A stretch of DNA of 64,000 nucleotides from an uncultured Bacillales bacterium (GCA_946612115.1 CAMOEI010000005.1:23462-87461), one strand, 5' to 3'. Shown: positions 2,141-51,088, numbered from the stretch's first letter. A program made the numbers and translations. Notes: a model not told the origin generated them from the letters alone.

Positions 2141-2755
2141 TTAGTATCTCTCTTCTTCCGATATTGGGTAAAAATACATTGCTTTATCGTTTAATTCTTC
2201 GATATCAACCGGATCATCAAACTCTGAATATTTCTTAATATCAAAATTCCAAGGTTTATATATTCCTCTTTCTTCATCTTCTCCATCGAAGTCTTTATCT
2301 ATCTCACCTTCTAAATAAGCATATAAGGATCTTATATTATCTTCCCAAATGCCCATGCCTTTTGCATCCAGCACAAAACCAGTTGGAATATCTTCATCAT
2401 CTTCAAATTCTTTTGTCACGATGGTTTTATATATTTTGCAATCAAAATCCCAACCATCACCTGTATCATAGACAAAAATGAACTTTTCAGGCAAATCTTT
2501 GATAGTTTTGTCTTTGAATGGCTCATTTCTAGAACTACCAAAACTATCCCATTGTTCCATCCACGATGAAGGAATATACGCTTTCTCTTTTGTGTGATAC
2601 ATAAAGAAATGTTCCATAGTGCCACCAAATACGTCGACCATTAATTCACCTAACTCTCCTAGGCCAATATCTTCTTTTACTAAAAATATGCGATAGAATC
2701 TACCTTTTGTTGCATATTTGAAATCCGCTCTAATTTTTAAATAATTCATCTTCAT
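2141..2755 (-). CDS. pRiA4b ORF-3-like family protein (PF07929-like)
   Basis: N-terminal YLKIRADFKYATKGRFYRIFLVKEDIGLGELGELMVDVFGG and central FIFVYDTGDGWDFDCKIYKTIV match the family's YxLKIxL…IWRRI… / F.YxYDFGDxWxHxI signature. 16 bp after the upstream gene, so same operon. Confidence 0.55.
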   Translation of the reverse strand: MKMNYLKIRADFKYATKGRFYRIFLVKEDIGLGELGELMVDVFGGTMEHFFMYHTKEKAYIPSSWMEQWDSFGSSRNEPFKDKTIKDLPEKFIFVYDTGDGWDFDCKIYKTIVTKEFEDDEDIPTGFVLDAKGMGIWEDNIRSLYAYLEGEIDKDFDGEDEERGIYKPWNFDIKKYSEFDDPVDIEELNDKAMYFYPISEEERY

Positions 2756-2770
2756 AATAATATTTGATTC

Positions 2771-4114
2771 TTATTTGATAACTTTCCAGTACCCTTTTTT
2801 GTTTGTTCCAACTCTTTGGATATACCCTTTTTCAACCAAAGACTCAAACACTCTCGATACCGTTCTTCTCGATATTTTAAGTTCCACTACTAAAGTGTCG
2901 TATGGAATACTTGGGTTATTTATAAGCTCTAACAACACCCTCTTTTCATTCTCGGTTAAGTCGTTGTTAAAAAGATTTTTGCCATCATTTTTGCCATCAT
3001 TTTTGCCACCTGTAATTTGACTGGCTACATCTTTGCTAAAAGGAATTATAACATTGATATATGTATCATGAATGTCAAAAGCCTCTTTTCCATATTTACC
3101 AATAATCTTAGGAATACCATGACCTGTATGTTCGACAATTCCAAGTTTTAAAAAGATTCTCATCAATACTGAATTTCTAGGGTGGCTAACACCATTAAAG
3201 AAATCATTCATCGTTATCTCTTTTGGAATACCACCATGAGAAGTAATTTCTAATCTATCTTTGTAAAAAGATACTAATGGCTCAGAAATAGTCCAATCGT
3301 TATGAACATATGCATTTACCAAAGCTTCATTAACACAGTCAATATCATATAAATATTTATCTACTCTTGGTCTCACTGTGGTATCGGTAACACATATGTT
3401 TTCAGCAATCAATCTATCTTTCAATCTTTGAAGACCTAATAAAATACTTTGATCACCATAATCACTTCTTTGAGAAATTGATGTTTTATCAGTTCCATCA
3501 AACTTAACGAAGATAACCGGCACCATATTTTTGTCAGATAATAATTCCGCCATCAAATTGTAAGAGCCATCTTTTCTTAATAAGTTAAAACTTTGTTCAA
3601 AGGATAACTCGTTAATATGGTATCCTCTGCTTGTTAAAAGAATCTTCATCATGTCAAAGGACAAAGGAGAATAATGGGCAGGTGCTTCTAAAATGAAATC
3701 ATTATCAATAAAATTTTTAGAATAACGATATTCAATTTCTTCTGAGCTCATTTCTTTACAAGTCGTGCCTACCCTAATAAGGCACCCTTTAGATGAATAA
3801 CCATATTTCTTAATACAGTAAATAGGTTTATATCCTTTAGGTACTGATATTTTTATTATTCTTTTGCCATCTTCACTTAATAAAGCGGTCGATATTTCGT
3901 TTTGTGGATTAGGTTCGATTTGCATTGTAATGATATCTGATATCTTTCTTTGAGTTTCATCTAAATCTTTATCTAAAATACCTAAGACATTACCCCAGTC
4001 AGTTACTCCAACAAAGATATCTCCACCATTCGCATTTAGGAAGGCAACAATATCTCTAACAATTGCATCAACATATTTTTCTTTTAATTCAACAATTTCT
4101 GATTCACGATACAT
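2771..4114 (-). CDS. Schlafen/AlbA_2-like divergent AAA domain + HATPase_c_4-like + C-terminal winged-HTH protein. Usually annotated 'putative transcriptional regulator / RecG C-terminal domain-like ATPase'.
   Basis: Translation MYRESEIVELKEKYVD…IVAFLNANGGDIFVGV (AlbA_2 start) … C-terminal ISRRTVSRVFESLVEKGYIQRVG (HTH). Start chosen at the internal ATG 4114 because GAGGCGAAAAT-ATG gives a good SD. The ORF-track start at 4174 lies in the promoter region. Confidence 0.6.
   Translation of the reverse strand: MYRESEIVELKEKYVDAIVRDIVAFLNANGGDIFVGVTDWGNVLGILDKDLDETQRKISDIITMQIEPNPQNEISTALLSEDGKRIIKISVPKGYKPIYCIKKYGYSSKGCLIRVGTTCKEMSSEEIEYRYSKNFIDNDFILEAPAHYSPLSFDMMKILLTSRGYHINELSFEQSFNLLRKDGSYNLMAELLSDKNMVPVIFVKFDGTDKTSISQRSDYGDQSILLGLQRLKDRLIAENICVTDTTVRPRVDKYLYDIDCVNEALVNAYVHNDWTISEPLVSFYKDRLEITSHGGIPKEITMNDFFNGVSHPRNSVLMRIFLKLGIVEHTGHGIPKIIGKYGKEAFDIHDTYINVIIPFSKDVASQITGGKNDGKNDGKNLFNNDLTENEKRVLLELINNPSIPYDTLVVELKISRRTVSRVFESLVEKGYIQRVGTNKKGYWKVIK
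2975..3010. repeat. 12-bp tandem repeat x3 (ATTTTTGCCATC x2 + ATTTTTGCCACC) inside the CDS, encoding GKNDGKNDGKN
   Basis: Seen directly in the sequence at 2975-3010. Confidence 0.85.
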
Positions 4115-4295
4115 ATTTTCGCCTCGCATCAAAATGATATCATATTTTTGCCATATTCTCAATATTTTTGCCAATATTTCCTTTTTATTTTTGACAAAAA
4201 TCTATCATGTTAAATCAATGAAGAGTCAAATCACAATAAAAAGTAACTAAAATAGAAAAAATCCCTGACATCAAATCAGGGATTAGAAACGATTC

Positions 4296-26927: not shown

Positions 26928-28085
26928 TTATAGAAGTAGGGGCTTCTTGCTCGATGACTCTAATGAGCCAAGCATAAACAAGCTATCCGGATGTGTCCCA
27001 TCCTTAGTAAGCATTTCAATTCCCTTACGTAGAATATTTTTAGCTGCGTTTATATCTCGATCATGGACTGAGCCACATTGAGGGCATGTCCATTTTCTTA
27101 CTCTTAAATCTTTAGTGAGAGGATTTTGATAATTGCAGTAACTACATAATTGACTACTTGGATAATTAGTAGGAACCTTAACAATAACGTTCCCATACCA
27201 ATTAGCCTTATAAATAAGCATAGAAACAAATTTAGACCAACTCGCATCAGAAATGCTTCTAGCGAGTTTAGTGTTTCTAGTCATATTTTTTACTTTCAGG
27301 TCTTCAATACAAATGATTTGGTTTTCATCAATGATAATTCGAGAAAGTTTATGTAAATAGTCATTACGTTGATTCTCTATTTTCTTATGAATTCTAGCAA
27401 CTTTAATTCTTTGCTTGTTACGGTTATTACTACCCTTTTTCATAAGAGATAGTTTTCTTTGTTCTCTAGCGAGTTTATTTTGTGATTTGGTTAAGTATTT
27501 ATGGTTTTTATATTTATTCCCGTTAGAGTCAATAATTAGCTCTTTAATCCCTAAGTCTAATCCAATCGCATTATCTAAAAATTTAATAGATTCAGAATTC
27601 TCCTCAACAAGCAAAGAAATATAATACTTCTCATCCGTAGTCTTACTAACAGTTACAGATTTAATTTCACCTATAAAGTCACGATGCTTCTTTATTCTAA
27701 TACGAGGACATTTAGGAATAGATATATATCGGTCGTTAGAGGAGAACTTCACACTTCCCTGGTTATTTGTGGTATAGCTTTGATCATTCCTTTTAGATTT
27801 ATATTCAGGAAAACCATTTTGCTTTTTATAAAACGATTTAAAAGCCGCGTTTCTTGCTAATTGTGCGTTACATAAGGCTAAAGAATCAACATCTTTTAAA
27901 AATGGATAATCCTTTTTATATCTAGCGGGAGTGATATTTTCATTTTTACCAGTAGATTTATATATCTCACACATATCTGAAAGAGACTTATTATAGAAAA
28001 ACCTTACACATCCAAAAACTCTAGAGAAGTATTCCTTCTGACTAGCGTTAGGATAGATGCGATATTTATAAGCTTTTCTAATCAT
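26928..28085 (-). CDS. tnpB: IS605 OrfB/TnpB (RuvC-like nuclease + C-terminal Zn finger CSYC…CPQCG); RNA-guided (OMEGA) nuclease family
   Basis: MIRKAYKYRIYPN… N-terminus; GLDLGIKE RuvC-I; CxxC…CxxC near the C-terminus. Confidence 0.85.
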   Translation of the reverse strand: MIRKAYKYRIYPNASQKEYFSRVFGCVRFFYNKSLSDMCEIYKSTGKNENITPARYKKDYPFLKDVDSLALCNAQLARNAAFKSFYKKQNGFPEYKSKRNDQSYTTNNQGSVKFSSNDRYISIPKCPRIRIKKHRDFIGEIKSVTVSKTTDEKYYISLLVEENSESIKFLDNAIGLDLGIKELIIDSNGNKYKNHKYLTKSQNKLAREQRKLSLMKKGSNNRNKQRIKVARIHKKIENQRNDYLHKLSRIIIDENQIICIEDLKVKNMTRNTKLARSISDASWSKFVSMLIYKANWYGNVIVKVPTNYPSSQLCSYCNYQNPLTKDLRVRKWTCPQCGSVHDRDINAAKNILRKGIEMLTKDGTHPDSLFMLGSLESSSKKPLLL

Positions 28086-28117
28086 AAACCTCCTAATTCA
28101 AGGAGTTAGATTAGTTA

Positions 28118-28513
28118 TCATTCTCCCTGAGATTCGATATATTCCTTGATTGTCTCAATATTAGCCACACCTATAGAGATAAGACAGAAAGACTGAGACC
28201 AGAATGCTTCTTTATATAATCTAGATCTAATAGAAGGAAATTCTTTCTTTATTAGTCTAGAAGAAGCAGACTTATAAGCATTGATGAACTTAGAGATATT
28301 AGAATTTGGTTCACTTCTAAATAAAATGTGAACACGATCCAAATCATGGTTCCATTCTTCAAGAGCAATATTATAATTACCCTCAATATTCCTAAATATC
28401 CCTTTTAACCTTTCAGATATTTCATCATTTATCACCTTTTTACGATATTTAACTACCAAGATTAGATGAAAATGAATCGCGAATACTGAATGGTTATTAC
28501 TCCTCAATTCCAC
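28118..28513 (-). CDS. tnpA: IS200/IS605 Y1 (HUH) transposase TnpA
   Basis: HFHLIL (HuH) motif and a Tyr-containing helix near the C-terminus (RLYKEAFWSQS); 131 aa. Confidence 0.85.
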   Translation of the reverse strand: MELRSNNHSVFAIHFHLILVVKYRKKVINDEISERLKGIFRNIEGNYNIALEEWNHDLDRVHILFRSEPNSNISKFINAYKSASSRLIKKEFPSIRSRLYKEAFWSQSFCLISIGVANIETIKEYIESQGE

Positions 28514-34138: not shown

Positions 34139-34214
34139 GGATGCTTAGCTCAGCTGGGAGAGCATCGCCTTTACACGGCGGAGGTCGGCGGTTCGATCCC
34201 GTCAGCATCCACCA
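34139..34214 (+). tRNA. tRNA-Val (UAC)
   Basis: GGATGCTTAGCTCAGCTGGGAGAGCATCGCC-TTTACAC-GGCGG…CCA; 76 nt; TTGATT-17-TATATT promoter ~50 bp upstream. Confidence 0.85.
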
Positions 34215-34238
34215 AGTAAATTACGCAGATATAGTTAT

Positions 34239-34322
34239 GGAGGGGTAGCGAAGAGGCTAAACGCGGCTGACTGTAAATCAGCTCCTTCGGGTTCGGCGGT
34301 TCGAATCTGCCCCCCTCCACCA
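34239..34322 (+). tRNA. tRNA-Tyr (GUA), long variable arm
   Basis: GGAGGGGTAGCGAAGAGGCTAAACGCGGCTGA-CTGTAAA-TCAGC…CCA; 84 nt. Confidence 0.85.
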
Positions 34323-34349
34323 ACTTGCTTCTAGTTTGGGGCAAGAGAT

Positions 34350-34424
34350 TGGGGTGTAGCCAAGAGGTAAGGCATCAGACTTTGACTCTGACATTCAGTG
34401 GTTCGATCCCACTCACCCCAGCCA
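34350..34424 (+). tRNA. tRNA-Gln (UUG)
   Basis: TGGGGTGTAGCCAAGAGGTAAGGCATCAGA-CTTTGAC-TCTGA…CCCCAGCCA; 75 nt. Confidence 0.8.
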
Positions 34425-34430
34425 TTAGTT

Positions 34431-34506
34431 GACTCGCTAGCTCAGTCGGTAGAGCACTTGACTTTTAATCAAGGGGTCCGGAGTTCGAATCTCCGGCGAG
34501 TCACCA
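34431..34506 (+). tRNA. tRNA-Lys (UUU)
   Basis: GACTCGCTAGCTCAGTCGGTAGAGCACTTGA-CTTTTAA-TCAAG…GCGAGTCACCA; 76 nt. Confidence 0.85.
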
Positions 34507-34521
34507 CTCAACTGACTATTT

Positions 34522-34608
34522 GCCCAGGTGGCGGAATAGGTAGACGCACAAGACTTAAAATCTTGCGAGGTTAAACTCGTACCGGTTCGATTCCGGTCCC
34601 GGGCACCA
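34522..34608 (+). tRNA. tRNA-Leu (UAA), long variable arm
   Basis: GCCCAGGTGGCGGAATAGGTAGACGCACAAGA-CTTAAAA-TCTTG…CCCGGGCACCA; 87 nt. Confidence 0.85.
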
Positions 34609-34617
34609 GTTGAAAAT

Positions 34618-34648
34618 TAAAATCCCCTGAAGGGGATTTTTCTTTTAC
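34618..34648. terminator. Bidirectional terminator AATCCCCT-gaa-GGGGATT + T-run after the tRNA cluster / ABC gene
   Basis: Seen in sequence. Confidence 0.8.
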
Positions 34649-36384
34649 TCTTCACTAGTTTGAAGTTTATATAAATTGTAATAATAGCCTTTTTTATCAA
34701 GTAGTTCTTGATGGGTTCCGCTTTCAATGATTTCTCCATGTGATAAAACGAAAATGTTATCGCTATCTTTGATTGTGGATAATCTATGAGCGACCACTAA
34801 AGTGGTTCCAATAGTTTTTATTTTATTTAAAGAATCTTGAATGACTTTTTCTGTTTCAACATCAATGTTCGCTGTCGCTTCATCTAAAATCATAATCTGC
34901 GGTTTATGAATGATTGTTCTAGCAAAAGAAAGTAATTGTCTTTGACCAGTAGAGAAGTTTTCTCCTCTTTGGACAACTTGAGTGTCTAACCCATCCTCTA
35001 ATTTATCGATAAACCTATCTAAAGAAACATATTTCACAGAGTGATTTATTTCTTGATCGGTAAACTTATCGTCAAATAAGGTGATGTTATCTTTAATTGA
35101 ACCGGTGAATAAGAAGACATCTTGAAGCATTTGCCCAATAGATCTTCTTAGAGAAGATAGAGAAATCTTTTTAATGTCGATATCATCGATTAAGATTTGT
35201 CCTTTTTGAACCTCGAAATTTCTTACGATTAAATTTAAGATTGTTGTCTTTCCACTTCCAGTATCACCAACAAACGCCACTGTGTCTTTTGGATTAACCA
35301 CAAAAGAGACATCTTTTAAAATCCAATTCTCTTCTTCATAAGCAAAATAGACATTTTTAAATTCAATCTTTCCTTTAAATTCCTTAATATCAATTGTGTT
35401 CTCATCAAGAACTTCTGGTTTGATATCTAATAAATCAAATAATCTTTCAATCGCACTTACTGCTCGAGAAATCTTATTTAATGAGTCGGCGAGTTGTTGA
35501 ACTGGTTCAAAGAAATAATCTAAGAACAAATAGAAGGTGACAATTATTCCAGCGGATAAGCCTAGTCTAACCCCCATATAAATAATTAAAGCAATTGATA
35601 GGATATATATAAGAGACACTAAAGGACGATAGATTGAGAAAGATAAAATGACTTGATAACGAGTTTTAAAATATTCAGCATTTTTATCTTTGAATGTTCT
35701 CATAAATCTATTTTCTTGTCTAAATAGTTGAATGATTTTCATTCCCGCTAAAGCTTCATTTAAGAAAGAGTTAAGTTCAGAGATTTGTTTCCTTTCTTTA
35801 GCGAAGATTTTGTGAACTTTCTTAGAAAATATATAGGAAATGATGAAGATAACGATAATTACACCAAATAAAATTAGACCTAATTTCCAAGATAAAACAA
35901 GCATCCAAATATAGACGATGATGACAGTTAATAAATCTCTAATAATCTTCACTAAAGTGTTTGTGAAGAATTCAGTTAGTTGAGAAGTATAATTACAAAC
36001 AACAGTGACTAAAGAGCCAACAGACATATCGTTAAACTGATTTTGTGAAAGATTTTCAACGTGCTCAAAAACTTCCATTCTTAGTTTATAAACAATTCTT
36101 TGTCCCGCTTTAGTTAAAATCATCGTTTGAGTATAAACAAATGACTGGGCAACTACGTTAAGAACAAAGGCCATGATCGCCAAAAAGATAATTGTTTTTA
36201 AAGTAGGATTATCGCTAGCGATATGGTCGGTGAAATATCCAGTTACGCGAGGTAAAAGTACTCCAACAGCCGCATTAGCCAAAATCAAGAATAAAGAAAT
36301 GATGAACCACTTCTTTTCTTTGGCGACATATTTTAATGTTCTTTTAATTAGAGAGGAGAAAGGTACTTTGCTATTATTTTCCAT
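34645..36384 (-). CDS. ABC exporter, fused permease + ATPase (type I exporter half-transporter), subunit 2 of a heterodimer
   Basis: 6-TM domain then Walker A GDTGSGKTT, signature FSTGQRQLL, Walker B ILDEAT. Confidence 0.8.
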   Translation of the reverse strand: MENNSKVPFSSLIKRTLKYVAKEKKWFIISLFLILANAAVGVLLPRVTGYFTDHIASDNPTLKTIIFLAIMAFVLNVVAQSFVYTQTMILTKAGQRIVYKLRMEVFEHVENLSQNQFNDMSVGSLVTVVCNYTSQLTEFFTNTLVKIIRDLLTVIIVYIWMLVLSWKLGLILFGVIIVIFIISYIFSKKVHKIFAKERKQISELNSFLNEALAGMKIIQLFRQENRFMRTFKDKNAEYFKTRYQVILSFSIYRPLVSLIYILSIALIIYMGVRLGLSAGIIVTFYLFLDYFFEPVQQLADSLNKISRAVSAIERLFDLLDIKPEVLDENTIDIKEFKGKIEFKNVYFAYEEENWILKDVSFVVNPKDTVAFVGDTGSGKTTILNLIVRNFEVQKGQILIDDIDIKKISLSSLRRSIGQMLQDVFLFTGSIKDNITLFDDKFTDQEINHSVKYVSLDRFIDKLEDGLDTQVVQRGENFSTGQRQLLSFARTIIHKPQIMILDEATANIDVETEKVIQDSLNKIKTIGTTLVVAHRLSTIKDSDNIFVLSHGEIIESGTHQELLDKKGYYYNLYKLQTSEE

Positions 36385-38179
36385 AGCTTTCTCCTTTCTT
36401 ATTTTCTAATTGTTGAAGTAGATACATTCTTTGGAATGTCTCACTTGTCTTTAGTAAGTTTTCTGGGGTATCAAACGCTTCGAGTTTTCCTTTTTTAAGA
36501 ACAATAATCTTATCAGCGTTAAGTAATGTAGACACTCTAGAGGCAACAATAATTGTTGTTTTATCTTTTCTGACTTCTCTTAATTGAGAAAGAATGTTAT
36601 CTTCGGTTTTTAAATCAACAGCGCTAACGACATCATCTAAAATCAAGACACTAGAGTTAGTCATATAAGCTCTTACTAAAGAGATTCTTTGTTTTTGTCC
36701 ACCAGAAATAGTGACTCCACCTTCGGCGATTTCGGTATTGTATTGATCTTTAAAATCAACGATATCTTTATCGATATCCGCGTATTTAGCGTTTTTAATA
36801 ATCTCTTCTTCGCTTGCCTCTATATTGCTAAAGGCAATATTCTCTTTAATGTTTCCTTGGAATAAGAAGTTATCTTGAGGTGCGATGTTCACATTTTTTC
36901 TTAAGCTTTCAATTTGGATATGTTGAACATCTACGCTATCGATGAAGACTTGTCCTTCGTTGATGTTATATAGGTGTAATAAAGAATTCACTAAAGTAGA
37001 TTTACCACTACCAACAGAGCCCACTACTCCAATTAATTCGCCTTTATTAATCTTTAAGGAGATATTGTCTAAAGCAGGTTTATTTTCTCCAGGATAATTA
37101 AATGAGAAGTGATTGAACTCAATATTTCCCTGAATATCAAATTCCATCGCTCCAGGAAGATCATAAATGTCAGTTGGGGTATCTAAGAATCTAGCGATAC
37201 GTTTATAACTTGTACGCGCTTTAGATAAATTGGTGATGACTTGACCAAGAGCGATCATCGGCCAAATAAGTGAGAAGAAATATCCTAAAAATGTCACTAA
37301 TGGGCCGGCTTCTAAAGTAATAGGCTGTCCGAATATATGAAGTGGACTACCAATTACTGTGTAATAAACAAATGTTCCACCAAAGCCAATAATAATCGCT
37401 GCAACTAGTCCAATAATGATTTCAATAGAGGCTTCAAAAATAACTGAAATTCTAGTGAATTTAATATTTATATCCTTGTTTTTACGGGCAATTTTACTAA
37501 AAGCGCGAATTTGTTGAACTTCTTTTACAAACGCTTTTATCACTCTGATTCCAGTAAAACTTTCTCTAGTAAATTCATATAGTGAATCGTTCGATTCTTG
37601 TCTAAGCTTCCAATATCTTCCCATCGCTCCTTCGCAAAGCATTCCAACTACGGCGATTAATAAAATCGGAATTAAAGATACCGCCGCTAAATATACTGAG
37701 ACACCAAACATCTTTATAAGAGCAAACAATGTTAAGAAGATTCCATCAACGATTTGAAGAGTGCCCCATCCTAAAAATTCCTCTAATGTTTCAATGTCAT
37801 CAGTGGCCCATGACATAATATTTCCTAAGTTATTGTTGTGGTAATAAGTAACGTCAAGAGATTCCGCTTTGGCAAACATTTCATTTCTGATGTTCATTTC
37901 TATTTTCTTTGAGGCATAGAATAAGGTAAGTCTCCACAATATTCTTCCAACAAACATGATGATCGCAACAAATATCGCCATGGTCATCGTATTTCTAAAG
38001 AAAACAGAACCTAAATCAATAGAGCCATTAGTTTTGATTTCAGTAACTAAACTTCCTAATAGTTCTGGAATCTTTAATTGAAACCAGTCGACTGCTAATA
38101 AAGAAAGGATTCCTACAATAACAAAAGGAAGATAACGTAAATAATATTTATTTAAGTGTTTTCCCCAGAGCAAAAACAT
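36374..38179 (-). CDS. ABC exporter, fused permease + ATPase, subunit 1 of the heterodimer
   Basis: Walker A GSVGSGKST, signature ISGGQKQRISL; overlaps the partner gene by 11 nt. Confidence 0.8.
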   Translation of the reverse strand: MFLLWGKHLNKYYLRYLPFVIVGILSLLAVDWFQLKIPELLGSLVTEIKTNGSIDLGSVFFRNTMTMAIFVAIIMFVGRILWRLTLFYASKKIEMNIRNEMFAKAESLDVTYYHNNNLGNIMSWATDDIETLEEFLGWGTLQIVDGIFLTLFALIKMFGVSVYLAAVSLIPILLIAVVGMLCEGAMGRYWKLRQESNDSLYEFTRESFTGIRVIKAFVKEVQQIRAFSKIARKNKDINIKFTRISVIFEASIEIIIGLVAAIIIGFGGTFVYYTVIGSPLHIFGQPITLEAGPLVTFLGYFFSLIWPMIALGQVITNLSKARTSYKRIARFLDTPTDIYDLPGAMEFDIQGNIEFNHFSFNYPGENKPALDNISLKINKGELIGVVGSVGSGKSTLVNSLLHLYNINEGQVFIDSVDVQHIQIESLRKNVNIAPQDNFLFQGNIKENIAFSNIEASEEEIIKNAKYADIDKDIVDFKDQYNTEIAEGGVTISGGQKQRISLVRAYMTNSSVLILDDVVSAVDLKTEDNILSQLREVRKDKTTIIVASRVSTLLNADKIIVLKKGKLEAFDTPENLLKTSETFQRMYLLQQLENKKGESYGK

Positions 38180-38725
38180 TTAATTCTGCTCCTTTTTCTT
38201 CTTTGAAGAAATAACAATGAGATATATTCCAAAACAAATAAGAGTGAAGGTCGTGAATCCCGCAAAGTCAATCAAGATATCAGTTAATAAGCCATATCTG
38301 CCTGGAACAAAATATTGAATTAGCTCAGAAACTGTCGCCAATAACAATCCAGACACTAATGAAATTAAAAGTAGATATCTCTTGTTGTTTTTAGATTCGT
38401 ATGTGAAGAAAAGCGATATAGATGTTAAGGTTCCGCTAAGACCAAATAATAGAAAATGACCAACTAGTTTTCTTATAACTGCATGTAATTCTTGATGGTC
38501 TACTTGAATAGATGGATTGATAGTTTCAATGATTTCGATAACACTTTCAGTAAAACTAATAGACTGAGAAGCGCTATTTGCCTCACCGATAAACGATTCT
38601 ACAATAATCAAAATATTAACAATAAGAGTTAATAATCCGAATATTGAAAAAAGAATTTTTAATCTTTTCATAACACGGAATAATTTTATATGAAAATTAT
38701 AGAATAGTGATATAATTAGTTTCAT
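38180..38725 (-). CDS. VanZ-family membrane protein
   Basis: RKLVGHFLLFGLSG motif; 4 TM; likely true start at MKRLKILF. Immediately downstream of the ABC pair (1-nt spacing). Confidence 0.5.
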   Translation of the reverse strand: MKLIISLFYNFHIKLFRVMKRLKILFSIFGLLTLIVNILIIVESFIGEANSASQSISFTESVIEIIETINPSIQVDHQELHAVIRKLVGHFLLFGLSGTLTSISLFFTYESKNNKRYLLLISLVSGLLLATVSELIQYFVPGRYGLLTDILIDFAGFTTFTLICFGIYLIVISSKKKKEQN

Positions 38726-39839
38726 GATTAATGAAAAAGTTAAAGAAATTCTTAAAAATACACTAGGCGAAGATTACGTTATCGAACACGAAGTTCAAGG
38801 TGGAATGATGAACGTTTCTTATCTAATTAGATCTGGAGATAAGAGATATATTTTGTATCTTCCAACTGAACAAGCTAACGAAATGGTAAACCGTGAATAT
38901 GAAAAAGAACATCAATTAATCGTTAGAGCTTTAGGCATCACATCAAAAAATGTTTATTTCGATGTTAAAAGCGGAATTAAAATCAATGAATATATTGAAG
39001 GTACTTCAATAGATAAAACCGCTGATATCGATTTAAAGAAAATCGCAAAGCTTTTTCATACACTTCACTCTTCTATGCTTATTAGCAAAGAAGACTATAA
39101 TCCATTTGATAGATTTATTAATATCTATGAGAAGGAGTCTCATTCTTTTGATTATGATTTCCCTCAACTATATAAAGATATCCGAGAATTTGTTATTAAA
39201 CATCGCGAGTATTTAGAAAACCAAAGAAAAGTTTTATGTCACAACGATTCTCAAAGAAGTAACATTATTAAATGCGATGACGGATATTACTATTTCATCG
39301 ATTTTGAATTCATGGGAAATAACGATCCAATTTATGATGTTGCCGCCTTTGGTAATGGAGATGTTAAAGACGGACGTGAATTATTAGATGTATATTGCAA
39401 TAATTCTCCTTCAGACGAAGAGATTAAAAGATTCTACTTATGGAGAATGTTTATTTCGTTACAGTGGTATAACGTCGCTATCACAAAGCACTTTAGAGGA
39501 GAAGGCGAAAAACATAACTTCAACTTTTTAGATGTTGCTTCTCATTTCTTAACTAACGCCAAAACAGCATTTGATGGATATCACTTAGAAATTAATGATG
39601 ATGAAGTTCATGATGACACAGTTAAATTAATTGTTATGACTTTAGACAAGATCAGACACTTCCTTAGAAAAGATGGAGGAGACTGTGAATTCATCAGCTT
39701 CAAAGATGGTGTTGTCAACGTTAAAATGTTTGGAGCGTGCCAGGATTGTTCTTATGCATATACCGACATCAAAGAATTGGTAGAGGTTATTTTACAAGAA
39801 GAAGTTCCTGGAGTAAAAGAGGTTAAATTAGCAGAATAA
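38724..39839 (+). CDS. Fusion protein: N-terminal choline/ethanolamine-kinase / aminoglycoside-phosphotransferase-like domain + C-terminal NifU_C (Nfu-type Fe-S scaffold) domain
   Basis: Kinase motifs LCHNDSQRSN (HxDxxxxN) and FIDFEF. C-terminus LRKDGGDCEFISFKDGVVNVKMFGACQDCS…VKEV matches NifU_C (GACxxC). Confidence 0.6.
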   Translation: MINEKVKEILKNTLGEDYVIEHEVQGGMMNVSYLIRSGDKRYILYLPTEQANEMVNREYEKEHQLIVRALGITSKNVYFDVKSGIKINEYIEGTSIDKTADIDLKKIAKLFHTLHSSMLISKEDYNPFDRFINIYEKESHSFDYDFPQLYKDIREFVIKHREYLENQRKVLCHNDSQRSNIIKCDDGYYYFIDFEFMGNNDPIYDVAAFGNGDVKDGRELLDVYCNNSPSDEEIKRFYLWRMFISLQWYNVAITKHFRGEGEKHNFNFLDVASHFLTNAKTAFDGYHLEINDDEVHDDTVKLIVMTLDKIRHFLRKDGGDCEFISFKDGVVNVKMFGACQDCSYAYTDIKELVEVILQEEVPGVKEVKLAE

Positions 39840-39844
39840 ATTCT

Positions 39845-39920
39845 TGGGGTATAGCCAAGCGGTAAGGCATCGGCCTCTGACTCCGAGATTTCCTTGGTTC
39901 GAATCCAAGTACCCCAGCCA
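39845..39920 (+). tRNA. tRNA-Gln (CUG)
   Basis: TGGGGTATAGCCAAGCGGTAAGGCATCGGC-CTCTGAC-TCCGA…CCCCAGCCA; one mismatch in the anticodon stem. Confidence 0.75.
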
Positions 39921-39932
39921 AATTATTAATAC

Positions 39933-39960
39933 TTGAGAGGAAGTTGCCTCTCTTTTTTTA
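39933..39960 (+). terminator. Terminator GAGAGG-aagttg-CCTCTC + T7
   Basis: Seen in sequence. Confidence 0.8.
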
Positions 39961-45514: not shown

Positions 45515-46267
45515 ATGAGAATTTTTGCAAATATTGTCACTTTATTTGTTATCGGATCACTATTTGGTTGGATTCTTGAAGTGTTCTTTAGGCGTTTCTT
45601 TTCTCAAAAAAGATGGATGAATCCAGGCTTTTTACAAGGTCCTTATCTTCCTATTTATGGGTTTGGAGTCTTGGGAATGTATGGATTAAGCGAAATCTTT
45701 AAAATCATCACCGCGAGTTGGACGATTCCAAACTGGATTTCTATTATCATTCAAATCTTAGTTATTGGAATTTCTTTAATCGTTATCGAATTCATCGCCG
45801 GACTTATTTTTATAAAAGGAATGGGTCTTAAGCTCTGGGACTATTCTGATAGATGGGGAAATACGATGGGCATTATCTGTCCATTATTCGATGTCTTATG
45901 GACCGCGGCAGGAGCGATTTATTATTTCTTTATCCATCCTTATCTTAAAGAAGGTATCGAGTGGCTCGCTTTAGAATCACATAATGTCTATTACCTTCTT
46001 ATTGGAATTGTTCTCGGTATGATGTTAGTGGACACCGCTTACTCAGTCCACTTAGCGACAAGGTTATCGAAGTTCGCTAAGGAAAACAAAGTTGTTCTTT
46101 CTTTGAAAGATTTACAACTTAAGGTCAAGGAAGCAAGAGACGATTTTAAAGAGAAACATCACTTCTATATCACCCCTAGTGATTTGAAGAGATTTATCGA
46201 CTCTAAGATAAGCAACTTAAAGGATCAAGAGAAGAAACCTTCTTCACCAGAAATAGAGAAGAAATAA
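45515..46267 (+). CDS. Polytopic membrane protein (DUF1113 / putative ABC-transporter type IV-like) with Lys-rich tail
   Basis: Hydrophobic profile. 3' end overlaps the convergent ABC/FtsX gene by ~65 nt. Confidence 0.4.
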   Translation: MRIFANIVTLFVIGSLFGWILEVFFRRFFSQKRWMNPGFLQGPYLPIYGFGVLGMYGLSEIFKIITASWTIPNWISIIIQILVIGISLIVIEFIAGLIFIKGMGLKLWDYSDRWGNTMGIICPLFDVLWTAAGAIYYFFIHPYLKEGIEWLALESHNVYYLLIGIVLGMMLVDTAYSVHLATRLSKFAKENKVVLSLKDLQLKVKEARDDFKEKHHFYITPSDLKRFIDSKISNLKDQEKKPSSPEIEKK

Positions 46268-48995
46268 CACTAATCAGTAGCGATAATCCAAGCATTAAAA
46301 ATAAGGAGATTGGATTAAACACAAACATTGATTCGATATATAGAGCCTTTGCCAAAGCTTTTGATAAGATAAAAGCCACAAGTAAAAGTTCTATACTAGA
46401 TAAGATAAAAGCTATCAAAGTCATGACAATAGAATGAGAAAAAATAAACTTATAGCTTTCAAACTTACTAACACCAAGGCATCGGATTAAACCGATGTCT
46501 TTTTTTGTCTCAATAAAATGAAGATAGTTACAAATAAATAAGATGAGTGAGGCAATAACTACACTAGCAATAGAGCAAATAAGCATGATTGTTTCGATAT
46601 AACCACATATTGTGAGAACACTACTTTTCACATCGTTTAATGGTGAAGAAAATTTATAATCCGGAAAAGCTTTTTCTAATAGTTTAATCACTGCTATCTC
46701 TTTATCTTTATCAATTTGTAGAGCGATATTTTCAACACTCAAATCAAAAGTCGATATTCCTAGCGAACATTGAAAAAACAAAATCGACCATTCTTCATTA
46801 TGTGATAGGGAATATCTTCCGCTATCAGAAACACCCACTATTTTCAAAGGGACATTGACGAAATCTCTAGATAAATATCCTTTTGGATTTAAATCTTCTC
46901 TAACTGGGAAAGAAAAATAGATAGTTTGATTAATTGAATTATCCATACCTAATTTTTTTAATAAAGAATTAGATACCACTATTTCTTGATAATTAATAGG
47001 TTTCCTGCCGGCCACTAATTTATAGTTAGGCTCAAATGTCAATCCTTCAGTTTTTGTTTTAGTGAAATGACCTTCCACCATGTTTTTAGGTAGGGTTATA
47101 TTGTTTGAGTCTTCATATTTGATATAACTCATTAAATCAACGATGTCATCTATGTCATTTAAACTCTTAGACAAGAAGGTGTGCCTAGCAAATCCACTCA
47201 TCAAACTTTGATCATATATGGCGTATCCATTAGATGAACCATATATAACGGATTTAACATTTTTTGAAACTTTTGGGGCATTTTTGCCGATAAATGATGG
47301 AGTTATGTCCTTATTTTCTCTATTAATTGGTATCACTCTATTACATTCGAAAGTATCTTTATGCTCACATCTAGTTTGATAATATTTCTTGTCCAAAATT
47401 TCATAATCAATTTCGATACTTGAGAATTTATTTTCAATTAAAAATTCATCTCTATTTTCACTAAATTCAAGATAATAACATTTCTTTAAATCCCACGGGT
47501 TAGCAGTGTTTTGGTTGATAATGTTTGTTGTTGGTAAACTCATTACATCTTCAAAGATGAATTCGTTCCACAATCTGTCAGTTTGATATATCAAATTAGT
47601 GCTAGATAAAATAAAACCAACAATATTGATTTCAAATTCAACCGCATAGCTCCATCTATCGTTTGCAAATTCAAATATCGTAGTGACAAAGTCATTCTCT
47701 TCAATATATTTGCTTAAGGAATCAATGGTTCTTGGAATTTGAAGTTGATAACATAACTCACTAATTTGAAGCATTGATAAAGAAATCACTACTTCGTTTG
47801 GATAAAGCTCTATTGGCCTAGATGGATAGATGTCTCCTCTATATTCATCTAGCATTTCAAATTCGTTAATCGAACTAGCGGACAAATTACAAAAGCTTTT
47901 CTTATAACCAGTTCTTTTTAGATAAATAGAGTTAAATGTTGGGAAGAAATTATCTAAGTTATTGAAATAAAACACTCCAATATCAGATATATTTTCATAT
48001 CGATTCTTGTAATCAAACGCATCAAGATAATTAATTGAAGTCACTGTATCTTTTTTGATATTAGGATTTTCATTTGAAACAATGATTTTATCATCGTCTA
48101 AAATAGAGGAATAACTCCTATATAAATTCGAAGAAACGACTTCACTTAATAAACCCGCTAAACCAATTCCGACTAAGCCTAAAGAAGTTGCCATAATTGA
48201 AAATAGATTTCTCCACTTTCGTTGTTTTATTGAATTAAATGTATGTGATAAAAGAAATCCAAACGGAAGTTTTTGTTTATCATTCCTATAAGAGAGTCTA
48301 ATCAAAGGTAAAACTGTTTCCTTCTTTTCTTTTTCTATTAATTTATTAGAAATGATTTCTCCATCTTTCATTTCCACGATTTGAGTTCCATATTCTTTGG
48401 CGATTGATGGGTCGTGAGTCACCATAATGACCAATGATTTTTTACTAATTTTATTTAATATCTCCATGACAATTTTGGAGTTAGCCTCATCTAAATTACC
48501 GGTTGGCTCATCCGCTAAAATAATTTTAGGTGAGTTTGCTAACGCTCTAGCGATCGCGACTCTTTGTTTTTCTCCACCACTAAGATTTTGAACTAATTGA
48601 TTTTTGTATTCCGATAGACCGACAAGTTTTAATAAATCATCCACTCTTCTTTCTTTTCGAGAATTTAAATCGATAGAGGATATATCCATTGCCAATAGAA
48701 TATTTTTCCTAACAGATTCAAATTCAAAAAGTTTAAAGTCTTGAAAAATAAAGCCGATCTTTTGATTCCGAATCATGTCTTTTTCTTTATTAGACATTTT
48801 TGAATATCTTTTGCCGTCTAAAAGTATTTCTCCATCAAATGGTAATAAAGAAGAAATAACATTTAATAATGTGGTTTTACCACATCCAGATGGTCCTTTA
48901 ATGATAACTAGCCCTGTTCTTTGAAAAGATATAGAGACATTATTTAATGCAAGTTCGTTATTAAATCTTTTAGTGACATTTTTAATTTCAATCAT
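46203..48995 (-). CDS. Fused ABC ATPase + large extracytoplasmic domain + FtsX-like permease (MacB-like), paralogue 2
   Basis: Walker A GPSGCGKTT, signature LSGGEKQRVAIARAL, C-terminal 4-TM FtsX-type region; 930 aa. Confidence 0.7.
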   Translation of the reverse strand: MIEIKNVTKRFNNELALNNVSISFQRTGLVIIKGPSGCGKTTLLNVISSLLPFDGEILLDGKRYSKMSNKEKDMIRNQKIGFIFQDFKLFEFESVRKNILLAMDISSIDLNSRKERRVDDLLKLVGLSEYKNQLVQNLSGGEKQRVAIARALANSPKIILADEPTGNLDEANSKIVMEILNKISKKSLVIMVTHDPSIAKEYGTQIVEMKDGEIISNKLIEKEKKETVLPLIRLSYRNDKQKLPFGFLLSHTFNSIKQRKWRNLFSIMATSLGLVGIGLAGLLSEVVSSNLYRSYSSILDDDKIIVSNENPNIKKDTVTSINYLDAFDYKNRYENISDIGVFYFNNLDNFFPTFNSIYLKRTGYKKSFCNLSASSINEFEMLDEYRGDIYPSRPIELYPNEVVISLSMLQISELCYQLQIPRTIDSLSKYIEENDFVTTIFEFANDRWSYAVEFEINIVGFILSSTNLIYQTDRLWNEFIFEDVMSLPTTNIINQNTANPWDLKKCYYLEFSENRDEFLIENKFSSIEIDYEILDKKYYQTRCEHKDTFECNRVIPINRENKDITPSFIGKNAPKVSKNVKSVIYGSSNGYAIYDQSLMSGFARHTFLSKSLNDIDDIVDLMSYIKYEDSNNITLPKNMVEGHFTKTKTEGLTFEPNYKLVAGRKPINYQEIVVSNSLLKKLGMDNSINQTIYFSFPVREDLNPKGYLSRDFVNVPLKIVGVSDSGRYSLSHNEEWSILFFQCSLGISTFDLSVENIALQIDKDKEIAVIKLLEKAFPDYKFSSPLNDVKSSVLTICGYIETIMLICSIASVVIASLILFICNYLHFIETKKDIGLIRCLGVSKFESYKFIFSHSIVMTLIAFILSSIELLLVAFILSKALAKALYIESMFVFNPISLFLMLGLSLLISVISSLFLVKKVSSLDPLSCLS

Positions 48996-51088
48996 AAGCT
49001 TTGTAACTCCTCTTTAACGTTTTTAAATTTTGAAAACAAGATTGGAATAGAAGTCGCTAAAAAGACCACAATAACCACAAAAAGCAATAAAAGGATTGGG
49101 AATATGAACTTAATTCCAAAAAGCGAGATAAAAGGAATCTGTATTAAATTAGATAACTCAATGTTTTTATGAATGATTAGATTGATAATCTTTTCTAGCA
49201 ATATGCTGAAAACAATTGAAAGCACTAACGAAATTAATCCGTTAATAAAAGACTCACCGAGATAAATATCTAAAATGTCTTTATCTCTTGAACCCAGAAA
49301 AGTTAATATCGCACTAGTTTTTCGATCTTCTGAATAACTAACAAAGGACATTATTCCTAAAATTAATACTGACCCGACAAAAGAAATAATTGTAAACAAG
49401 ATTATTCCATATTCCGCAACATCGACAAAGTCTTTTAAGGAATTAGTAAGCAATAAACTTTCAGAAGAAAAAGAAAGCGAATTCCCAAAATCTATATCCT
49501 TTACAAGAGTGTCTCTAAACCTATAGTCTTTTAAAAATAAATTATAGGAATAAGAGGTAATAATAGAGATATCAGGAGAATTAATTACGTAGTCAAACCA
49601 TGAGATATCATAGCCGTTGTAGGTTGATAGATTAAACATAATAGAACTATGAAAATAATCCTCTAACGCTAAGTGGGAGAAATATATTTTCTCGCTAGAA
49701 AGATAATTGAGTTCTTTAACAACTCCAACAATTCTTACCGACTGTTCAAAGTTAAAAATGTCAGTGATATATTCTTCATCCTCAGTCACATAATTATTGG
49801 TAAATTTGCTCTTGATAGTTAGATATTCACCAACCGGTTCTTTACCTATCTTCTTTTTAATCAACTCCTTTGCGAATTGATTGATTACCACTTCTTTTAA
49901 TGAGTCAGCTTTAGGAATATATCCATCTATTATTAATGAGCTATCGACATAATCATTTTTAAAAGAATAAATCGGTTTATAATCTAATTCATTGATTGGT
50001 TGTTCATCGTAACAAATAGTCAAATTTTGATAAAGAATTGTCGAGAAATTAGGACAAATCTCGAATAAATTGGTAATTTTTTTATTATTCCTCAACTCAT
50101 TAATTGTTGGTCTAATTGACTTAGTTAAATTTAGCATCCCTGTGCCAGACACTTTTTCTTCCTTGCTAATCGAGCCACTACCATAATTAAACTGCCTGTA
50201 GCAGGTATTTGAGATAGATTTATCTTTTCCATTTATAAATCCAGACACCAATATAAACATTGAAAAAGAGATCACTAAACAAAAGGAAGTAAACAGATTT
50301 CTTTTAAATCGCTTTTTAAAATTGGATAAAAAGAAATCTTTGGTCCATTTTGAGTTATTTTTAGAAATTGAAGACGGTTCTATATCAATTTCTTTAAGCT
50401 TATGTCGACCATCAATTTTAGTTACTTCACCATTAGATAAATAAATAATTTTATCCGAATATTCTTTAACTAAAAGTAGGTTGTGTGATACCAGGATTAC
50501 TAATCTTTCCTTACTAATACCCTTTAATATATCCATAACTTTTATAGAATTAGATATATCAAGGTGTCCAGTTGGTTCATCGCATAATAAAATCTTAGGT
50601 TTTGAAACGATTGCTCGAGCAATTCCTACTCTTTGCTGTTCACCTCCTGATAGTTCACTAGTTAATTTAGAAAATTGGTCTACTTTAATTCCAACTTTAT
50701 CTAGAGCCTTAATGGCGAGTTCTTCTGCTTTATTCTTTTTTATCCCTTTTATTAATAATGGAAGAGTGACGTTATATAAAACAGTCTTCTCTTGTATCAG
50801 ATTAAAGTTTTGAAAAACAATGCCAATTTCATTTTGATAAAAAGATGGTTTTTCTTTTCTCTTAAATGAAGAATAACTCCTTCCCATATAATAGAGTTCT
50901 CCTTCACTTGGCGAATCTAACATTGCAATTAGATTTAAAAGTGTTGATTTACCGCTTCCACTTTTGCCGACAATCGACACTAATCCATTATTCGGAAAAT
51001 CTAGATTAATGTTCTTTAAAGCGTAGAATTTCTTTTTGTTTTTTGTTTGATAGATTTTTGAGACATTTGAGATTTTTAAGGTATTCAA
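48992..51088 (-). CDS. Fused ABC ATPase + extracytoplasmic domain + FtsX-like permease (MacB-like), paralogue 1; probable TTG start
   Basis: Walker A GKSGSGKSTL, signature LSGGEQQRVGIARAI; SD AAAGGGGGA 8 nt before the TTG; overlaps the downstream paralogue by 4 nt. Confidence 0.65.
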   Translation of the reverse strand: MNTLKISNVSKIYQTKNKKKFYALKNINLDFPNNGLVSIVGKSGSGKSTLLNLIAMLDSPSEGELYYMGRSYSSFKRKEKPSFYQNEIGIVFQNFNLIQEKTVLYNVTLPLLIKGIKKNKAEELAIKALDKVGIKVDQFSKLTSELSGGEQQRVGIARAIVSKPKILLCDEPTGHLDISNSIKVMDILKGISKERLVILVSHNLLLVKEYSDKIIYLSNGEVTKIDGRHKLKEIDIEPSSISKNNSKWTKDFFLSNFKKRFKRNLFTSFCLVISFSMFILVSGFINGKDKSISNTCYRQFNYGSGSISKEEKVSGTGMLNLTKSIRPTINELRNNKKITNLFEICPNFSTILYQNLTICYDEQPINELDYKPIYSFKNDYVDSSLIIDGYIPKADSLKEVVINQFAKELIKKKIGKEPVGEYLTIKSKFTNNYVTEDEEYITDIFNFEQSVRIVGVVKELNYLSSEKIYFSHLALEDYFHSSIMFNLSTYNGYDISWFDYVINSPDISIITSYSYNLFLKDYRFRDTLVKDIDFGNSLSFSSESLLLTNSLKDFVDVAEYGIILFTIISFVGSVLILGIMSFVSYSEDRKTSAILTFLGSRDKDILDIYLGESFINGLISLVLSIVFSILLEKIINLIIHKNIELSNLIQIPFISLFGIKFIFPILLLLFVVIVVFLATSIPILFSKFKNVKEELQSL

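Follow-up and report, generated by a model that had tools for sequence, protein, structure and literature searches.

A gene fusion joining a LicA-like kinase to an Nfu iron-sulfur carrier domain in uncultured gut and rumen Bacilli

Nfu proteins hold an iron-sulfur (Fe-S) cluster that bridges two subunits, and in NfuA of Escherichia coli the C-terminal Nfu domain is fused to a degenerate A-type N-terminal domain, which serves as a targeting module. In the kinase LicA of Streptococcus pneumoniae (PDB 4R77/4R78/4R7B), catalysis requires Asp176, Asn181, Asp194, and Glu196, and the choline cage and further substrate contacts are provided by Thr29, Val178, Tyr197, Glu213, Trp251, Trp254, and Tyr268 (PMC4364537). 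CcrZ, a cell cycle kinase of B. subtilis and pneumococci, has the LicA fold with a remodelled cage and acts on ribose or deoxyribose, not on choline (PMC9135335). VanZ proteins have been predicted in a study of the Lipocone to act on lipid-carrier-linked head groups (PMC12419801). Here, we describe a 64-kb stretch of DNA from an uncultured Bacillales bacterium (hereafter the window, over whose whole length all coordinates are counted), in which a single gene joins a LicA-like kinase to an Nfu domain and is flanked by genes for a VanZ-family protein and a pair of ATP-binding cassette (ABC) half-transporters. The reading that we favor, with moderate confidence, is that the locus is a mosaic: a deletion joined the kinase to a housekeeping Nfu, and each half has retained its own function.

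The fusion gene, recognized by open reading frame (ORF) calling and Pfam (38724..39839, plus strand), encodes a protein of 371 amino acids (aa). Pfam assigns to it Choline_kinase PF01633 (49.7 bits; cut-off, 29), APH PF01636 (47.4 bits; cut-off, 23.2), and NifU PF01106 (67.6 bits; cut-off, 27; residues 306 to 367). The kinase part, delimited by fold, family, and unfused orthologs, comprises aa 1 to 291 (38724..39596, plus strand), and its end matches the C terminus of stand-alone sister kinases (GYxxEIK). According to the junction alignment, it is followed by the linker DDEV (aa 292 to 295; 39597..39608, plus strand) and then by the Nfu Fe-S carrier domain with the stop codon (aa 296 to 371; 39609..39839, plus strand), as defined by Pfam and PDB 1xhj. 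An AlphaFold2 model, for which the input alignment consisted of database sequences only, is confident for both domains, with a mean predicted local distance difference test (pLDDT) value of 89.3 and a predicted template modeling score (pTM) of 0.76; pLDDT values below 50 occur solely at residues 293 to 296, i.e., at three linker residues and His296. The initial annotation of the window had named this ORF, its three neighbors, and their domains, every one of which is present and scores above curated cut-offs in Pfam, with NCBIfam in agreement. Likewise, the motifs that it had pointed out were found (H173-N-D175-S-Q-R-S-N180, I-D193-F-E195-F, and G337-A-C339-Q-D-C342), and the domain search that it had proposed confirmed both halves of the fusion above the Pfam cut-offs.

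The same architecture is encoded in other genomes. The 120 best homologs, taken as 90%-identity clusters derived from ENA, Logan, NCBI, and JGI assemblies, are 62 to 100% identical and all carry PF01106 together with PF01633 and PF01636; nearly all of them are 370 to 376 aa long. The fusion is also present in seven independently assembled metagenome-assembled genomes (MAGs) from rumen or gut, designated 'Bacilli bacterium' or 'uncultured Erysipelotrichaceae', and the linker codons differ between genomes, yet the frame is kept. Among 1.84 billion representatives of 50%-identity clusters, one match extended over both domains (P0099; P and L numbers are used here for related proteins and related loci, respectively). 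In a neighbor-joining (NJ) tree rooted on LicA, which carries no support values, the fused pair is monophyletic, with the unfused P0121 as its sister. The fusion genuinely belongs to a single lineage of uncultured Bacilli from gut and rumen. With its recurrence in the 120 clusters and the seven genomes, the view that the fusion is real and its architecture unusual stands; its phylogenetic distribution, for which the initial annotation had called, is real but confined to that one clade. Searches of the literature returned nothing relevant on kinase-Nfu fusions or on fusions of such kinases with Ham1/RdgB, and the kinase-Nfu architecture is undescribed in the literature searched. Its parts are known ones, and the way in which it arose is mundane.

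This origin can be traced in related loci, which share a common chromosomal frame. Its 5' part consists of pepF (minus strand), a HAD-family gene, an S1-domain gene, pgi, and the tRNAs Val-Tyr-Gln-Lys-Leu, and its 3' part of the kinase gene, nfu, tRNA-Gln(ctg), a minus-strand gene of the inositol monophosphatase family, nrnA, rpoE, and argS. Two slots in the frame are variable, slot 1 between the tRNAs and the kinase gene and slot 2 between the kinase gene and nfu. In the sister clade (L008 to L013; 53 to 57% identity), the frame is the same, the kinase is a stand-alone protein of about 287 aa ending in GYxxIK, and a separate gene for a 77-aa Nfu lies 3 to 3.6 kb downstream on the same strand. 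Slot 2 is filled in this clade by unrelated genes that vary from genome to genome: in L008, it holds genes on the opposite strand for a DUF1667 protein and two FAD oxidoreductases, one of which has a BFD [2Fe-2S] domain, and in L013, genes for a 610-aa protein and a LemA protein. In the fused clade, slot 2 has shrunk to 12 nucleotides (nt), the remainder of these 3 to 3.6 kb. The stand-alone kinase of L005 terminates in DGYQKEIK, the stand-alone Nfu of L013 begins with MDDSEKLIIETLDKIRHF, and the fusion junction in L001 and L004 reads DGYKLEIK-DDKV-MDDTEKLIISTLDKIRHF; in the fused proteins generally, the kinase C terminus is followed by DDKV or DDEV and then by the Nfu N terminus.

At the site of the former nfu start, L001 and L004 retain ATG; the window has CAT there (encoding His296), L003 has GAT, and L006 has CGA, so that these last three can make Nfu solely as part of the fusion. 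An internal start producing a separate Nfu was considered and rejected for the window, L003, and L006, L001 and L004 being the only inspected loci that keep the ATG, and no conserved Met was found in the linker or the Nfu N terminus across the fused sequences compared. The shared frame, the 12-nt scar, the lone P0099, and the monophyly together argue for a single origin by deletion, and they indicate that the fusion arose once, through loss of the DNA between neighboring kinase and nfu genes. Specifically, slot 2 was deleted in the lineage of the window, with only the 12 nt left and the kinase stop codon gone; with this stop codon lost, a complete LicA-fold kinase is read straight into a complete housekeeping Nfu carrier. 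Separate genes in relatives, which the initial annotation had held to speak against the fusion, do exist in the sister clade, but they mark the origin of the fusion and not an artefact. The locus thereby offers a clean, datable case of a bifunctional gene formed by loss of intergenic DNA, with a start-codon relic and a four-residue scar still visible. It also counsels caution in taking fusions ('Rosetta stones') and gene adjacency for signs of shared function.

Among proteins of solved structure, pneumococcal LicA is the best relative of the kinase half (phmmer E = 7e-26; E = 4e-34 over residues 5 to 261 with the family profile). It is likewise the best fold match in Foldseek (E = 9e-17; TM, 0.77), in which APH structures rank beneath choline and ethanolamine kinases. 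The two proteins agree in length (about 290 aa), in the Brenner motif (C)HNDxxxxN, and in the choline kinase motif IDxE..N...D, and all four catalytic residues of LicA are kept, as D175, N180, D193, and E195. These residues are invariant in 37 fused sequences, as is H173, so the ChoK/APH fold is present with its Brenner motif and Mg-binding Asp; the mean column identity of the kinase domain is 67 to 73%. NCBIfam equivalog models were not approached (GntI, 73 versus 357 bits; ThiK, 58 versus 299). To CcrZ, with which the kinase shares the conserved catalytic Asp, Asn, and Asp, the match is weak (20 versus 400 bits in NCBIfam; E = 4e-4 over a partial region of PDB 7s3l), and the CcrZ pocket residues G187, F240, and W243 stand against F196, W248, and V251 in the family of the window's kinase.

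Unlike the catalytic residues, the substrate contacts of LicA are largely replaced. Thr29, Val178, and Trp254 of LicA have given way to Met, Gln, and Val, respectively, in exchanges that are fixed; in strand β3, Lys45 has become Tyr, and at the LicA contact sites the window's kinase carries Met29, Gln177, Phe196, Trp248, Val251, and Phe268, a set in which the choline cage is not preserved. The Glu213 column lacks a conserved acid; the HMMER and MAFFT alignments differ here by one column, and neither places an acidic residue at this site. A residue comparison over 121 relatives separated two groups. The LicA type (n = 29), to which LicA and the fusions with LicC-like nucleotidyltransferases belong, is characterized by Thr29, Asn32, Val/Leu177, Tyr196, Trp204, Glu213, and Trp251 (Thr in 26, Val/Leu in 26, Tyr in 29, Glu in 26, and the Trp251 equivalent in 29/29). 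The window's family (n = 92) is characterized by Ser/Met29, Gln177, Phe196, Tyr204, Phe-Gly-Asn at 209 to 211, and Val251 (Gln in 81, Phe in 80, Val in 82, and Glu213 in none), and in the NJ tree it forms a separate, clean clade of 92 tips. Nucleotidyltransferase fusions occur only within the LicA-type group (P0181 and P0226); no licB, licC, or licD gene was seen in the ORF translations of the window or in loci L001 to L024, and tblastn detected no second kinase copy within the window. The kinase is thus a member of a LicA sister family in which the substrate pocket has been remodelled, and its substrate is probably not choline. This LicA-like family comprises at least 92 clusters at 50% identity and had no match to characterized families in these searches.

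Position 45 is occupied by Arg in 73/92 and by His in 5/92 members of the family, and by Tyr in the immediate clade of the window's kinase. Within this clade, Tyr45 and Met29 are common to fused and unfused members; as the unfused L005 to L013 and P0121 to P0129 share both residues, the two exchanges are older than the fusion.

The genomic contexts of the family offer a lead toward its substrate class. A Ham1/RdgB noncanonical nucleoside triphosphate pyrophosphatase is fused N-terminally to the kinase in 12 of 149 representatives of the family (P0137, P0138, P0143, P0146, P0148, P0154, P0157, P0171, P0202, P0211, P0236, and P0244), with P0137 sited after RNase PH. In the P0133 cluster, for which four contigs were recovered, Ham1 is encoded by a gene of its own that shares 26 nt with the start of the kinase gene. 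Such repeated fusion and adjacency, seen in these proteins and in loci L015 to L019, identify Ham1/RdgB, not Nfu, as the recurrent partner of the family, and they suggest a nucleotide- or ribose-related substrate for these uncharacterized kinases. No consistent operon partner of Tyr45-type kinases emerged among the contexts inspected, which comprised a DUF2804 gene for P0122, a gene for a 4Fe-4S protein for P0131, nothing consistent for P0126, and genes for a DAGK-like kinase and an acyltransferase for P0124 and L013. In the unfused relatives L013 (221-2956), L021, and L022, genes for a DAGK_cat/YegS-type lipid kinase and a PlsC-type acyltransferase are followed by the kinase gene as the third on the same strand. 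This run hints at lipid head-group metabolism, pointing away from the Ham1 link.

The C-terminal 76 residues of the fusion protein form a complete Nfu domain with GACxxC, as in the Nfu of S. epidermidis (1XHJ; E = 3e-13), and belong to PF01106 with the CxxC motif in place. Its cysteines, C339 and C342, are invariant in the 37 fused sequences, and the domain is 71 to 81% identical among fused and stand-alone orthologs; together with the invariant catalytic residues of the kinase, this places each half of the protein under constraint. With single-domain Nfu proteins it has in common the stand-alone ortholog at the same chromosomal site in sister genomes; unlike these, it is produced solely as the C-terminal portion of the 371-aa protein. 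As in NfuA, there are two domains, Nfu at the C terminus and a module without Fe-S function at the N terminus, and the NCBIfam NfuA model reaches 23 bits on the Nfu part of the fusion only. In contrast to NfuA, however, the N-terminal partner is, judging by its residues, an apparently active small-molecule kinase and not a degenerate A-type scaffold, and there is no sign that the kinase half has an NfuA-like role in targeting client proteins. A second Nfu was not found within the window by tblastn, and no suf genes were seen in the ORF translations of the window, a subset of which was confirmed by Pfam; Fe-S client enzymes encoded in the window are a MiaB-type radical S-adenosylmethionine enzyme and an L-serine dehydratase. 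An additional Cys at aa 321 (nt 39684 to 39686; GGDCEF) is nearly invariant in the Nfu of the fused clade. The S. epidermidis Nfu shares a Cys at the matching position, and the stand-alone Nfu proteins of L008 and L013 have Val or Ile there (GGDVEF and GGDIEY).

In the favored reading, the two halves most likely retain separate jobs on one polypeptide. The kinase half would phosphorylate a hydroxyl group of a small molecule, probably not choline, and the Nfu half would most likely still hold and pass on a [4Fe-4S] cluster bridging two subunits, by which the kinase would also be dimerized. We infer enzymatic activity for both halves and no biochemical coupling between them. Several points weigh against this reading. 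The independence of the two activities is deduced from the way in which the fusion arose, and the fusion has been maintained while the sequences diverged by about 38%, none of the 120 best matches showing a secondary fission; retention of this kind would fit selection acting on the fused state. Tyr45 replaces the β3 Lys/Arg and Met29 the P-loop Ser/Thr, exchanges that may alter nucleotide binding or activity. Finally, the co-occurrence of VanZ with the fusion (see below) could reflect function rather than shared ancestry.

The main alternative is a functionally coupled fusion in which Nfu acts as an Fe-S- or redox-dependent dimerization or regulatory module or in which the kinase controls cluster delivery. 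We regard it as unlikely; if true, it would link Fe-S status to the production of a phosphorylated metabolite. Coupling would fit the persistence of the fusion through the whole clade and the dimerization expected from a bridging cluster. A linker of only four residues means that the domains are held close, the fused clade falls within the subgroup having the unusual ATP-site residues Tyr45 and Met29, and the 4Fe-4S protein gene near the distant relative P0131 overlaps the start of the kinase gene. Against this, the fusion had a single origin by loss of DNA between genes that were already syntenic, the Tyr45/Met29 exchanges predate it, and the recurrent partner of the family is Ham1/RdgB. Moreover, proximity of kinase and nfu ends at the sister clade and is absent in L005, L007, P0124, P0126, and P0133. 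A more specific proposal combines both lines, namely, that the Ham1/RdgB-partnered family, a large sister family of LicA and CcrZ with Gln177, Phe-Gly-Asn at 209 to 211, and Val251 as its signature, phosphorylates a nucleoside- or ribose-like molecule instead of choline and that the Nfu tether creates an Fe-S-cluster-dependent kinase dimer coupling Fe-S status to a phosphorylation signal; taken together, this is improbable. To our knowledge, no Fe-S-linked member of the choline kinase fold was known beforehand, and the protein would be the first if the Nfu tether modulates the kinase.

It is similarly improbable that the kinase half is an impaired pseudokinase serving as a binding or scaffold module, so that the protein would amount to an N-terminally extended Nfu resembling NfuA. 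This explanation draws on the two exchanges at the ATP site: the β3 Lys/Arg that contacts the ATP phosphates (Lys45 in LicA) is Tyr, and the equivalent of LicA Thr29, the hydroxyl of which matters, as a T29A mutant keeps about 10% of the activity (PMC4364537), is Met in the window's clade. However, the domain as a whole is highly conserved, and no variation occurs at its catalytic Asp, at the Asn and Asp that bind Mg, or at the Glu. The occurrence of His at position 45 elsewhere in the family shows that the site tolerates change, and the existence of Tyr45/Met29 kinases as stand-alone genes argues that they have a function of their own. A degenerate, noncatalytic fold, raised as a possibility in the initial annotation, is therefore not what the catalytic residues show, even though the β3 residue departs from Lys/Arg.

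Slot 1 holds a minus-strand run headed by VanZ and continued, in only some genomes, by a heterodimeric ABC exporter. The order of this run is VanZ, ABC-A, and ABC-B. The VanZ-family membrane protein, identified by Pfam and NCBIfam, is 181 aa long as the longest ORF (38180..38725, minus strand); ABC-A (36374..38179, minus strand; 601 aa) and ABC-B (34645..36384, minus strand; 579 aa, with transmembrane domain followed by nucleotide-binding domain) were identified by ORF calling and Pfam and overlap by 11 nt. Between the VanZ stop codon and the ABC-A ATG there are 0 nt, not the 1 nt given initially, and VanZ is the upstream-most gene of the run, not the one that follows the transporters. ABC_membrane and ABC_tran exceed their curated cut-offs in both half-transporters. 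In ABC-A, Walker B is VLILDD (Glu to Asp), the H-loop IIVASR (His to Ser), and the signature canonical (ISGGQ); in ABC-B, Walker B is IMILDE, the H-loop LVVAHR, and the signature degenerate (FSTGQ). This asymmetry implies one degenerate (ABC-A) and one consensus (ABC-B) ATP site. The best matches among solved half-transporters are YheI/BmrC and TM287 for ABC-A and TM288, then 5mkk_A/6raf_A, then YheH/BmrD for ABC-B. Judged by motifs and matches, which bear out the heterodimer proposed at the outset, the pair is of the BmrCD/TM287-288 type and has a predicted export function. It resembles BmrCD (YheI/YheH) and TM287/288 in its adjacent, overlapping genes and its one degenerate ATP site and differs in being present in only some genomes of its clade. 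NCBIfam equivalog cut-offs were not reached, the best models being SmdA/SmdB (361 versus 845 and 386 versus 746 bits).

The VanZ gene scores 35.9 bits with Pfam PF04892 (cut-off, 30.1) and 48.7 bits with NCBIfam vanZ_1 NF037970 (cut-off, 20). Its true start is probably Met19 (position 38671), giving a protein of 163 aa, because its L001 and L004 homologs, of 163 and 164 aa, respectively, begin at the equivalent Met; this start leaves a divergent intergenic region of 52 nt, as in L001, and not overlapping start codons. As in VanZ/Lipocone proteins, the product is a small multipass membrane protein with ExxQ, DxxxD, and RK...H motifs, found by eye as ELIQ..PGR, DILID, and RKLVGH. The VanZ-2 family has RKxxH in H2 and DxxxD in H4 (PMC12419801); DILID fits the latter, and since the RKxxxH spacing seen here exceeds the former by one residue, assignment to VanZ-2 is tentative. 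Unlike VanZ of van operons, the gene lies outside any van operon, its neighbors being tRNAs, pgi, and other housekeeping genes; no vanHAX, vanRS, or vanY was seen in the ORF translations of the window. In L001 (1501-1908) and L004 (5060-5467), the run of VanZ, or of VanZ and ABC genes, is followed by a gene for a predicted membrane protein of 135 aa that matches no Pfam family; the window lacks this gene.

The distribution of these genes among relatives is patchy. The window, L001, and L003 carry the ABC pair, and L002, L004, and L006, i.e., 3/6 fused-clade genomes, lack it; in the latter three, pgi, the tRNAs, VanZ, and the fusion gene form an uninterrupted series. VanZ stands beside the fusion in 6/6 fused-clade loci with a visible upstream side. 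Both VanZ and the ABC pair are missing from the unfused L008 to L011, in which the kinase gene begins about 150 nt after tRNA-Leu. This patchiness indicates that neither is an obligatory partner of the fusion, and the VanZ distribution is the pattern expected from shared ancestry alone. On balance, the region is probably a mosaic rather than a single functional unit.

The initial annotation had proposed an antibiotic modification and efflux unit. That an antibiotic kinase and VanZ/ABC-mediated tolerance and efflux form a resistance island is very unlikely, although antibiotic kinases share the APH fold, the first VanZ came from an operon for glycopeptide resistance, the ABC pair is similar to BmrCD and other multidrug exporters, and the genes are physically adjacent. 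Against the proposal stands the absence of the ABC pair from half of the fused-clade genomes and of both VanZ and the ABC pair from the unfused clade. In sequence and fold, the kinase is nearest to LicA, with APHs well below, and resistance models were not approached: APH(3')-IIIa NF033064 gave 15.7 bits against a cut-off of 530, short of APH membership, and the Tet(46) A/B models gave 262/300 bits against 1250. The kinase gene is, moreover, a conserved chromosomal gene amid housekeeping genes, and GC content is flat over the region. For resistance surveillance, this neighborhood of VanZ, ABC, and APH-fold genes should not be scored as a resistance island. Last, that a sequencing, assembly, or frameshift error joined two genes is practically inconceivable: relatives with separate kinase and nfu genes exist, but the same in-frame junction in the 120 best clusters from several assembly sources and in the independent MAGs, across linkers that have diverged and remain in frame, rules out an artefact and settles the frameshift check suggested initially.

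The elements flanking the four genes belong to the chromosomal frame. The left anchor is the tRNA cluster Val(tac)-Tyr(gta)-Gln(ttg)-Lys(ttt)-Leu(taa) (34139..34608, plus strand; ARAGORN), after which slot 1 starts; the same five tRNAs lie in identical order downstream of pgi in L001, L002, L004, L006, and L008 to L011. tRNA-Leu is separated from the 3' end of ABC-B by a terminator-like hairpin (34619..34640, strand not assigned; a 9-bp stem followed by a T run, by consensus match only), which could act for both convergent transcripts. The right anchor is tRNA-Gln(ctg) (39845..39920, plus strand; ARAGORN), which begins after a gap of 5 nt from the fusion stop codon and is followed by another terminator-like hairpin (39935..39952, plus strand; consensus match only). 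Six loci (L001, L004, L006, L008, L013, and the window) were inspected for the gap between the stop codon of nfu or the fusion and tRNA-Gln, and it measures 1 to 6 nt in them. From this layout, the tRNA is probably cotranscribed with the fusion gene and excised from the 3' end of the nfu transcript, here that of kinase::nfu.

Upstream of the kinase, an extended -10 element, TGATATAAT, was found by sequence match (38708..38716, plus strand), ending 7 nt before the ATG. A similar -10 element (TGnTATAAT-like) ends 6 to 8 nt ahead of the kinase ATG in L001, L003, L004, L005, L006, L008, and L013, and no Shine-Dalgarno sequence precedes this ATG in the window or the loci inspected, fused or unfused. 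A -10 element so close to the ATG together with the lack of a Shine-Dalgarno sequence corresponds to the layout of a leaderless kinase mRNA, which these positions suggest to be conserved across fused and unfused loci.

Further elements of the window lie at a distance from the locus. An IS200/IS605-type element (26928-28513, minus strand) encodes the Y1 transposase TnpA (28118..28513; PF01797) and a TnpB/Cas12f-like OrfB (26928..28085; PF01385, PF07282, and PF12323). At 46203-51088 (minus strand), adjacent genes encode MacB-like proteins of 930 and 698 aa, in both of which an ABC ATPase at the N terminus is fused to an FtsX-type permease at the C terminus; they represent a second ABC system, unrelated to ABC-A/ABC-B. 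Finally, at 2141-4174 (minus strand), a gene for a 467-aa protein combining Schlafen/AlbA_2, a RecG-C-like HATPase, and a winged helix-turn-helix domain adjoins a gene for a 204-aa pRiA4b ORF-3-like protein, and this pair may be related to mobile elements or defence.

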